NCBI GenBank assembly: GCA_048938855.1 | Contig: JBHLLT010000029.1 | Coordinates: 1 to 37,182, forward strand | DNA length: 37,182 bases | DNA from: Promethearchaeota archaeon | Lineage (GTDB): Archaea; Asgardarchaeota; Lokiarchaeia; Sigyniarchaeales; SOKP01 | Direction: 5' to 3' | Notes under the pieces: model-generated | The model's input: only the letters and a program-made list of their open reading frames with translations | The model's database searches: none | Told to the model about the DNA's origin: nothing | Shown here: positions 6,737-8,391 of the stretch, piece by piece | Layout: each line of letters opens with the position of its first letter | Numbering within the stretch: position 1 is the first letter of the stretch | Made by a program: the position numbers and the translations under genes

Positions 6737-8131
6737 CTATAAATTTGATTTTCTCATTTTTTTAATCTCAGACCAAAAATATTTTATTGTTAATACATAC
6801 CAAATTAAGAGTATTGGAATTAATAATAGAAAAGAGATTATTAGGTTAATTGGAATAATAACAATTCCAATGTCTATATCTTCAAAAGGAAGGTTCATTA
6901 CTACTGATTCAATGAATATGAGAAAAATTATCAAAAACACTAATAATACTATCATTAAGACTATAATTCCTCTAATCCTGGGGAATTTATATAAAATATA
7001 AATAGTTGGGATTAGAAAAGCGAAAAAAGCAATAATTAATACAATAATACTGTAATTTCCTAAAGAAAATTGCATGAGCAAGATAGAAAGTATGGAAAAA
7101 AAACCACATATAATTGAGATTGCATAAAAATTTTTCACTATTTCTGGTTCTCTTAAAGGGCCTTTTGCTAAAATCAACCTAGGCAAGGTTAATACTGCGT
7201 CTTTTTGATCTGAAGCTTTAATTCGATCATCTTGGAGCAGAATTATATCTTCTTTACTCTCTCTGATATCACTACTTTCAAAAAAACCCCGTACAGAATA
7301 AATATAATAGAAACTGTTGAATATATGGATAAGAAGGGCACAAAATGTAGCAACTTCTAAAGATCCAAATAACATAACACAAGCAATCATTGCACCCATA
7401 GCTAAGGTGCCTACGTCTCCAGGAAAGGTTTTAGCAGGATATCTATTAAAAATAAAAAATGCCATTATCACCGCAATAACGGGAATTGTAAATAACACAC
7501 CTTCAGCAGAATTCCATATTAAACTACAGATAAACAAGAAACAAATAGCAATCAAACAAGTCCCTGATCCTTCACCATTATAACCTTCCAACATATTTAC
7601 GGTATTTGCAAAAACTGCTACAATTATAGGTACTACGAATGGATAAATTATTGTTAATCTTGTTATATCAATAATTGGGATAGTTGGTGACTCTATAGTA
7701 ATAAAACCAAATAAATTCGCTAAAAAGATAATACTTCCCGAGAATATTGATAAAATTATTTTATACCTAGATCTCAATTTTTTTCTATCATCAAGATAAC
7801 CTATAGCTCCTGTTAATAAAACTGTAAGAAGAAAAATCAATGATTCATGGGAGAAAGAAGGAAAGAATACAATTAAGAAAATCATGCTAATACTAATCCC
7901 AATTACCATACTAATCCCGCCAGATTCGGCAATTTCTGGTTTTGCATTTTTATGGATATCAATACCAACATGTCCTTTTCTTTTCATAAATTTTATGAGA
8001 TAAGGTAGAACTAGATAAGTCACCAAAAATCCAGTGACAAATATAATTACTAAAAAGATTATTTCCATAAAACTCCAATTCAAATCAGTTAGAAGGTTCA
8101 TTAATAACCAAACAGTTTTATTATAAATCAA
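6737..8131 (-). CDS. aglH: UDP-GlcNAc:dolichol-phosphate GlcNAc-1-phosphotransferase (AglH/GPT, MraY-like family)
   Basis: GIDIHK..PEIAESGG, GYLDD, NTVNMLEGYNG and FNRYPAKTFPGDVGT motifs; the real start may be the ATG at 8101. Confidence 0.85.
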   Translation of the reverse strand: MIYNKTVWLLMNLLTDLNWSFMEIIFLVIIFVTGFLVTYLVLPYLIKFMKRKGHVGIDIHKNAKPEIAESGGISMVIGISISMIFLIVFFPSFSHESLIFLLTVLLTGAIGYLDDRKKLRSRYKIILSIFSGSIIFLANLFGFITIESPTIPIIDITRLTIIYPFVVPIIVAVFANTVNMLEGYNGEGSGTCLIAICFLFICSLIWNSAEGVLFTIPVIAVIMAFFIFNRYPAKTFPGDVGTLAMGAMIACVMLFGSLEVATFCALLIHIFNSFYYIYSVRGFFESSDIRESKEDIILLQDDRIKASDQKDAVLTLPRLILAKGPLREPEIVKNFYAISIICGFFSILSILLMQFSLGNYSIIVLIIAFFAFLIPTIYILYKFPRIRGIIVLMIVLLVFLIIFLIFIESVVMNLPFEDIDIGIVIIPINLIISFLLLIPILLIWYVLTIKYFWSEIKKMRKSNL

Positions 8132-8217: not shown

Positions 8218-8350
8218 TAGCCCGGCACGGATTCGAACCGTGTTCGCTATACGCCCCGTATCGAGATATATAGTCGCGGGGTTCAAGGCCCCAAATGCTT
8301 GGCCATTTTACTTAATACAAAAAAGATGTATTAATCTACACCACCGGGCT
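8218..8350 (-). tRNA. tRNA-Gln(UUG) with two 30-nt introns (8306-8335 at 15/16; 8243-8272 at 48/49)
   Basis: Removing both inserts gives a 73-nt cloverleaf: acceptor AGCCCGG/CCGGGCT (A1-U72, as in archaeal tRNA-Gln), D stem GTGT/GCAT, anticodon stem TGGGG/CCCCG with loop CCTTGAA, variable CGAC, T arm CACGG-TTCGAAT-CCGTG, discriminator A; CCA not encoded. Confidence 0.9.
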
Positions 8351-8391
8351 AATGTATTAATTGTGATATAGAGCTGTAATCTTTTCATTTT

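Follow-up and report, generated by a model that had tools for sequence, protein, structure and literature searches.

A tRNA-Gln(UUG) gene with two 30-nt introns at non-canonical positions in a Loki-type Asgard archaeon

Multiple non-canonical introns with BHB or HBh' motifs were reportedly described in Thermoproteales and other Crenarchaeota by Marck and Grosjean in 2003 and by Sugahara in 2007 and 2008. In the Thermoproteales, knowledge of multi-intron genes with relaxed motifs goes back to 2003-2008, and the intron positions given in the same source are 20/21, 22/23, 25/26, 29/30, 30/31, 45/46, 53/54, 56/57, 59/60, "etc." (PMC4090602). The standard geometry consists of two 3-nt bulges across a 4-bp helix (PMC4090602; bioRxiv 10.64898/2026.10.13.758758). 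Among Asgard archaea, 92-95% of the tRNA genes of Atabeyarchaeia and Freyarchaeia contain introns, often several and often at non-canonical positions (Valentin-Alvarado et al. 2024, PMC11291895). A survey of 90 Asgard genomes by Goswami et al. 2026 described repeated intron gains as well as enrichment at BHB boundaries, reported that most genomes have two EndA paralogues, and found that tRNAscan-SE misses about 30% of inserts, mostly those in the D-arm (bioRxiv 10.64898/2026.10.13.758758). Asgard archaea carry an (alpha-beta)2 EndA with an L1 loop; the loop lysine confers broad specificity, and this two-paralogue, L1-loop enzyme type has been linked to cleavage of relaxed motifs (Kaneta et al. 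2018, PMC5829648). The same work showed that a D-arm HBh' intron of Methanopyrus kandleri is processed in vivo (PMC5829648).

We analyzed a 37,182-nucleotide stretch of DNA, hereafter the window, from an assembly of 3.95 Mb in 93 contigs with 30% G+C and 97% completeness. Its positions 8350..8218, on the minus strand, very probably constitute a functional tRNA-Gln(UUG) gene with two 30-nt protein-spliced introns in a Loki-type Asgard host. The gene is a clean but ordinary example, Asgard multi-intron tRNA genes having already been published. It shares with them an Asgard host, at least two short introns per gene at D-arm and variable or T-arm sites (here two introns in one gene, at 15/16 and 48/49), omission by standard annotators, repeated gain or loss, and two EndA paralogues. 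The two Asgard studies (PMC11291895; bioRxiv 10.64898/2026.10.13.758758) centre on Atabeyarchaeia and Jordiarchaeia/Freyarchaeia, whereas this gene belongs to the Promethearchaeota (Loki-type), and Loki-type lineages are nowhere named in the preprint text (bioRxiv 10.64898/2026.10.13.758758). Intron length also differs, with a tight 30-nt mode in this genus against a census median of 22-23 nt (bioRxiv 10.64898/2026.10.13.758758). Like those of Thermoproteales and other Crenarchaeota, these introns are short, apparently protein-spliced, placed outside 37/38, of relaxed HBh'/hBH type and several to a gene (PMC4090602), and they are associated with an (alpha-beta)2 EndA carrying a specificity loop. 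The phylum is different, however, and neither 15/16 nor 48/49 is among the positions listed in PMC4090602. The intron of M. kandleri pre-tRNA-Glu(UUC) is similar in that it lies in the D-arm and has only the helix H, one closed bulge and h' (Kaneta et al. 2018, PMC5829648). Its removal was shown by RNA-seq and in vitro cleavage, whereas removal here is predicted from sequence; in addition, the M. kandleri enzyme has no L1 loop and is poor at cutting such substrates, whereas the alpha subunit encoded here has both loop and lysine (PMC5829648).

An earlier note on this DNA had proposed a tRNA-Gln gene split by two 30-nt introns, both non-canonical, at 15/16 and 48/49, with an empty 37/38 site. 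Our reading of the minus strand agrees with it: the 133 nt comprise an exon of 15 nt, an insert of 30, an exon of 33, a second insert of 30 and an exon of 25 (Table 1). AA closes each insert, and no insert is present at 37/38. The exons joined in silico gave the exact 73-nt cloverleaf that the note had predicted, which ARAGORN called tRNA-Gln(ttg), with a perfect 7-bp acceptor stem starting from A1-U72, A73, a 9-nt D-loop, the anticodon loop CCUUGAA, a 4-nt variable loop and a standard T-arm. CCA is not encoded. The open reading frames that overlap the tRNA region are all trivial (26-43 aa). One base upstream of A1, a 10-nt leader (ATTAATACAT, 8352-8361, minus strand) repeats the first 10 nt of intron 1. 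The matching leader is at most loosely similar in relatives (UCUAAUACAUU in G011, UUUAAUACAAU in G003) and unrelated in others; the exact copy is thus specific to this genome, and it may be a product of chance in AT-rich DNA.

Table 1. Features of the tRNA-Gln(UUG) locus; positions are those of the window unless a locus label is given
Feature	Position	Strand	Description
Trm112-like gene (PF03966), 216 aa	8392-9042	-	upstream neighbour of tRNA-Gln
Exon 1	8336..8350	-	tRNA positions 1-15: acceptor 5' strand, U8, G9, D-stem 5' strand, A14, G15
Proposed central helix H1, exon strand G10 U11 G12 U13	8338..8341	-	faces intron 1 nt 25-28, 8308..8311
Intron 1	8306..8335	-	30 nt, after position 15 (D-loop, 15/16)
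Exon 2	8273..8305	-	tRNA positions 16-48: remaining D-arm, anticodon arm, 4-nt variable loop
Anticodon UUG	8286..8284	-	within exon 2; C33 at 8287
Proposed central helix H2, exon strand C42 G43 C44 G45	8275..8278	-	faces intron 2 nt 25-28, 8245..8248
Intron 2	8243..8272	-	30 nt, 48/49: between position 48 and first T-stem base
Exon 3	8218..8242	-	tRNA positions 49-73: T-arm, acceptor 3' strand, discriminator A73
Family-4 glycosyltransferase (GT4) gene (PF00953)	6737-8131	-	downstream neighbour of tRNA-Gln
Relatives with T-loop intron	L013:1458-1619 (G001); L015:542-673 (G005); L019-L022; L024		

The strongest evidence comes from comparison across the genus, in which the inserts behave as introns. 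Forty related genomes were searched at the DNA level, and the gene was present in 23 of the 24 that belong to the same genus; the order Trm112-like gene, tRNA, GT4 gene, all on one strand, is kept in 23 same-genus genomes. We aligned 23 genus genes, namely the window's own and 22 syntenic relatives; the syntenic copy of G020 is cut off by a contig end and was left out. Twelve of the 23, the gene of the window's genome (G000) and eleven others, carry both inserts only. The remaining genes have both inserts and a third in the T-loop (one gene, G001), insert 1 and the T-loop insert (two, G005 and G013), insert 1 only (three, G012, G006 and G009), the T-loop insert only (four, G024, G002, G019 and G004), or no insert at all (one, G018, L023:186-258). 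Intron 1 is thus precisely absent in five same-genus genomes (G024, G002, G019, G004 and G018) and intron 2 in ten. Genes that lack an insert read straight through GUGUAG|UGGCC or GAC|CACGG, the very junctions at which the inserts had been proposed to be introns, and the insert boundaries are therefore fixed to the nucleotide with no need for RNA data. A non-syntenic tRNA-Gln(UUG) from another family (G027) is also insert-free. It shares the junctions with the G018 gene; ARAGORN identifies both as tRNA-Gln(ttg), and their scores with the Rfam tRNA model are 56-60 bits. Exact removal of the inserts from the window's gene thus restores a canonical cloverleaf that exists uninterrupted in relatives. 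The third intron of the relatives is 29 nt long and follows UUCGAA; in G001, all three introns lie within one 162-nt gene.

Introns come and go within the genus. We mapped their presence and absence onto a tree built by a quick maximum-likelihood search from 480 columns of the two flanking proteins in 24 species. G027 was unsuitable as an outgroup, its tRNA-Gln locus not being syntenic; the tree was therefore midpoint-rooted, and it gives minimum change counts only. The fewest state changes were three for insert 1, two for insert 2 and five for the T-loop insert, which adds up to at least 10 changes at the three sites of this locus among 24 species.

The exons and the intron hairpins are under selection. 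Among the 13 two-insert genes, mean identity is 98.7% for the exons and 86% and 76% for introns 1 and 2, respectively, and exon 1 is identical in all 13; the flanking proteins are only 52-81% identical across the genus. The hairpins show compensatory changes in the 23-sequence alignment with specified structure, with changes on both sides in six of the eight pairs of the intron 1 hairpin (h'1) and in three of the seven pairs of the intron 2 hairpin (h'2). Paired cells amounted to 95% in the specified structure versus 28-47% with slid partners, and none of 500 shuffles reached the observed covariation. Constraint on the exons is thus of the tRNA type, and that on the inserts acts on shape, not on sequence.

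Short introns outside the canonical site are the rule in this genome. We placed 17 introns of 25-37 nt in class I tRNA genes using a simple script that allows one intron per class I gene and is reliable for such one-intron genes only; rows for class II, two-intron and tRNA-Ala(CGC) genes were misplaced and were ignored. Only four of the 17 are at 37/38, the others being found at 22/23 to 25/26, in the D-loop, at 28/29 in the anticodon stem, at 44/45 and at 48/49; many end in AA, and six are exactly 30 nt long. The equal length of the two Gln introns, which had been singled out in the earlier note, is therefore real but not special, as tRNA introns across the genome have a modal length of 30 nt. 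The same 30-nt build recurs at a dozen other tRNA sites. One of them is tRNA-Asp(GUC) (G000:C49:257373-257477, plus strand), which has a 30-nt intron at 48/49 after the exon sequence GCGAC, with four of four central pairs and a 9-bp hairpin. By hand count, Gln intron 2 and the tRNA-Asp intron are identical at 18 of 30 positions, mostly at the ends that are forced by GCGAC. A blastn-short search for other genomic copies of either Gln intron gave one notable match, an exact 18-mer in AT-rich intergenic DNA of contig C58, which has no tRNA or gene context and was judged to be due to chance.

The genome encodes a predicted machinery for removing such introns. Both Pfam domains of EndA were confirmed in each of two homologues. 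One of them, of 197 aa (G000:C93, L026:1453-2046), best resembles the catalytic alpha subunit of Aeropyrum pernix EndA (3P1Z_B, E 4.5e-34). Its catalytic triad of Tyr, His and Lys is intact, the His falling in the column that is mutated to Ala in 3AJV_B, and its N-terminal specificity loop contains a lysine that aligns with A. pernix K44. In the other, of 202 aa (G000:C34, L027:1210-1818), Ser replaces the catalytic His of the Methanocaldococcus jannaschii EndA, as expected of a structural beta subunit, which we predict it to be. RtcB is also encoded. The gene content thus includes a predicted relaxed-motif endonuclease and an RNA ligase, in keeping with the claim of the note that this lineage splices relaxed motifs. 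Its assignment of the DNA to an Asgard lineage also holds. The closest public relatives of the EndA alpha gene, at 75-92% identity, are mostly MAGs of Promethearchaeota or Promethearchaeia (Loki-type), some others being named Hermod-, Hod-, Thor- or Odinarchaeota or "uncultured archaeon."

The two introns are built alike, from one bulge nucleotide, a hairpin of 23 nt, four exon-facing nucleotides and two bulge nucleotides (AA), for a total of 30. The hairpin described in the note for each insert is perfect in intron 1 (8 bp, 7-nt loop). In intron 2 it is present but imperfect, with 7 bp and a 9-nt loop, made of four pairs, an A.C mismatch and two pairs; in this genome it is weakened by the A.C mismatch and two G.U pairs. 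The bulges, AG|A and AA|U for intron 1 and AC|U and AA|C for intron 2, and the four-position central helices with one G.A each are all where the note had them. In H1, exon bases G10 to U13 face intron nucleotides 28 to 25 (A, A, U, G), giving G.A, U-A, G.U and U.G; all 18 genes that carry intron 1 pair U11, G12 and U13, and three of them pair G10. In H2, C42 to G45 face G, C, G and A, giving three G-C pairs that are invariant in 13 of 13 genes and one G.A, G45 being paired in one of 13. Formation of H2 opens two anticodon-stem pairs. The introns belong to the relaxed class only, because the strict hBHBh' form, which has a 4-bp central helix, two 3-nt bulges and both outer helices, is absent: in each intron H consists of three pairs and a G.A, and no outer helix h forms (0 bp). 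In the relaxed HBh' form, (H, h') equals (3, 8) for intron 1 and (3, 4) for intron 2.

The HBh' conformer is the most likely substrate in our reading of the alignments, and it is not the one predicted by free-energy folding. H1 and H2 have a probability of 0 in RNAfold, which keeps the two hairpins and the anticodon, T and acceptor stems; RNAalifold forms neither of them, shifts the base register of intron 2 by 2 nt and leaves the anticodon stem intact. The inserts might accordingly be spliced by an EndA, alone or with a helper, that reads the hairpin and the adjacent bulge instead of the HBh' geometry, with the second cut placed by distance or by another conformer, for example one that pairs C44, G45 and C48 with intron 2 nt 28-26. 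This mode of recognition would be compatible with the G.A in the central helix of 15 of 18 and 12 of 13 genes and with the permissiveness of the relaxed class in the published census (bioRxiv 10.64898/2026.10.13.758758, section 2.4). At least three of four central pairs are also frequent by chance, occurring in 17% of random 30-nt segments of the genome and at 7-10 of 64 alternative insertion sites. On its own the central helix is thus weak evidence, but its combination with an abutting intron helix is more than chance: at least three central pairs with an intron helix of at least 4 bp occur in 0.44% of random segments, and with one of at least 8 bp in 0.016%. In addition, the cuts fixed by comparison with G018 and G027 lie exactly four positions apart across the proposed helix in both introns, as the BHB rule requires. 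The variation on the intron strand of H1 (G or A opposite U13, C or U opposite G12, A or G opposite U11) always preserves pairing, and some relatives have four of four pairs (G012 and G009 for intron 1, G003 for intron 2). We consider recognition without HBh' unlikely and retain the HBh' conformer, because the RNAalifold register would bury the 5' cut inside a continuous helix and because the fixed junctions have the four-position offset.

Two further explanations bear on whether both inserts leave a working tRNA. Insert 1 might be the only one removed, insert 2 being kept as a long extra arm in a class-II-like tRNA-Gln. Insert 2 does adjoin the variable loop, its hairpin base can stack on the variable region, and ARAGORN accepted the 103-nt product as a long-arm tRNA, although it miscalled it as Ser. 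Class II extra arms, however, lie between positions 45 and 48 and are constant within an isoacceptor family, whereas insert 2 follows position 48 and is precisely absent from ten same-genus genes with otherwise identical exons; a class II long variable arm was rejected for these reasons. Moreover, we know of no class-I tRNA-Gln with a 34-nt variable region, the 3' end AGCGAA of intron 2 is conserved in 12 of 13 genes, where the splice motif needs it, and the same build recurs in tRNA-Asp, at 48/49, and at sites in the D-stem and the anticodon stem, where an insert cannot be retained. Retention of insert 2 is thus very improbable. We give even less credit to a decaying pseudogene accompanied by a working tRNA-Gln in the unassembled part of the genome. 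In favour of this alternative, the assembly is a draft of 93 contigs at 97% completeness, and tRNA-Gln(CUG), which is present in relatives, was not found in it. The gene also has C33, and U33 is near-universal in tRNA, making C33 unusual for a working elongator tRNA. Nevertheless, C33 is common to 13 of the 23 genus genes, including the intron-free one of G018, the other 10 having U33; relatives' tRNA-Gln(CUG) varies between C and U at this position, and both tRNA-Glu(UUC) genes of the genome (G000:C35:285-391 and G000:C31:5009-5110) have C33 in the loop CCUUCAC, so that this feature is not confined to glutamine tRNAs. The nearly invariant exons between diverged flanking proteins, and the conservation of the locus with both introns and compensatory hairpin changes in 13 species, also speak against decay. 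An intact second tRNA-Gln(UUG) would have counted against the gene according to the earlier note. Exon searches with mismatches and searches with acceptor ends and with the relatives' CUG gene found no second tRNA-Gln, UUG or CUG, in the 97%-complete assembly, and in long ORFs 81% of the Gln codons are CAA, which together argue strongly against a pseudogene.

With a functional two-intron gene as the preferred reading, we infer a route from transcription to ligation as follows. The gene would be transcribed as a 133-nt body with both introns. Four intron nucleotides would pair with the sixth to third exon bases upstream of the 5' cut to form the helix H. The 5' cut would then fall in the 3-nt bulge closed by H and h', and the 3' cut four positions away across H, in an unclosed stretch. 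The two-subunit EndA would make all four cuts, its alpha subunit carrying the Crenarchaea/Asgard L1 loop with the lysine and its beta subunit lacking the catalytic His, and RtcB would join the exons. As H1 would occupy the 5' strand of the D-stem and H2 part of the anticodon stem, we propose that the full cloverleaf forms only after both introns are removed.

The note had also suggested that standard scans could miss or miscall this gene, and they do both. The unspliced gene was not called by ARAGORN, had no match in Rfam at gathering thresholds and was missed by an Infernal tRNA search of the whole genome; Rfam searches of the region at E values up to 10 gave chance-level matches only (STnc340, mascRNA and snoRNAs). 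Half-spliced forms with one insert removed were miscalled Ser(tga) or Glu(ttc) by ARAGORN. The core of a group I or group II ribozyme comprises hundreds of nucleotides; a self-splicing intron of either group was ruled out, the inserts being 30 nt each and matching no Rfam family above the gathering score. ARAGORN with introns allowed gave many wrong anticodons and intron calls across the genome, such as a "Gln ctg" at C79:158443 that is actually tRNA-Pro(UGG), and its intron-mode output was therefore not used for intron positions. A structure-based tRNA scan recovered the tRNA-Gln gene and several others missed by Infernal, raising the number of tRNA genes from 30, about half of which are 98-112 nt long, to 34. 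With Infernal, ARAGORN and the structure-based scan of the genome, none was seen for His, Tyr, Cys, Trp, Asn, Gln(CUG) and several others, and further multi-intron or T-arm-interrupted tRNA genes are probably hidden in the genome. Two regions of 162 and 173 nt with matching acceptor ends and T-arms (G000:C31:13493-13654 and G000:C81:46295-46467, both on the plus strand) look like class II tRNA genes with several introns.

This gene leaves knowledge of archaeal tRNA splicing unchanged, its design, the enzyme type and the detection problem all being published. Its main value lies in annotation: the only detectable glutamine tRNA gene of the genome is invisible to ARAGORN and Rfam/Infernal. Because such genes escape these tools, the tRNA sets of Loki-type MAGs will look incomplete unless multi-intron searches are made. 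The locus also represents a compact natural experiment, with zero, one, two or three introns at three fixed sites in one genus, in which intron presence and absence fixes the junctions from DNA and shows repeated gain or loss. One might speculate, although we regard this as rather doubtful, that the 30-nt hairpin introns of the genus form a single population in active turnover, entering and leaving whatever RNA offers an HBh' site. If tRNA and mRNA introns did share one source and one machinery, the lineage would be a natural system for EndA-type intron gain, which could then be watched in the closest prokaryotic relatives of eukaryotes.
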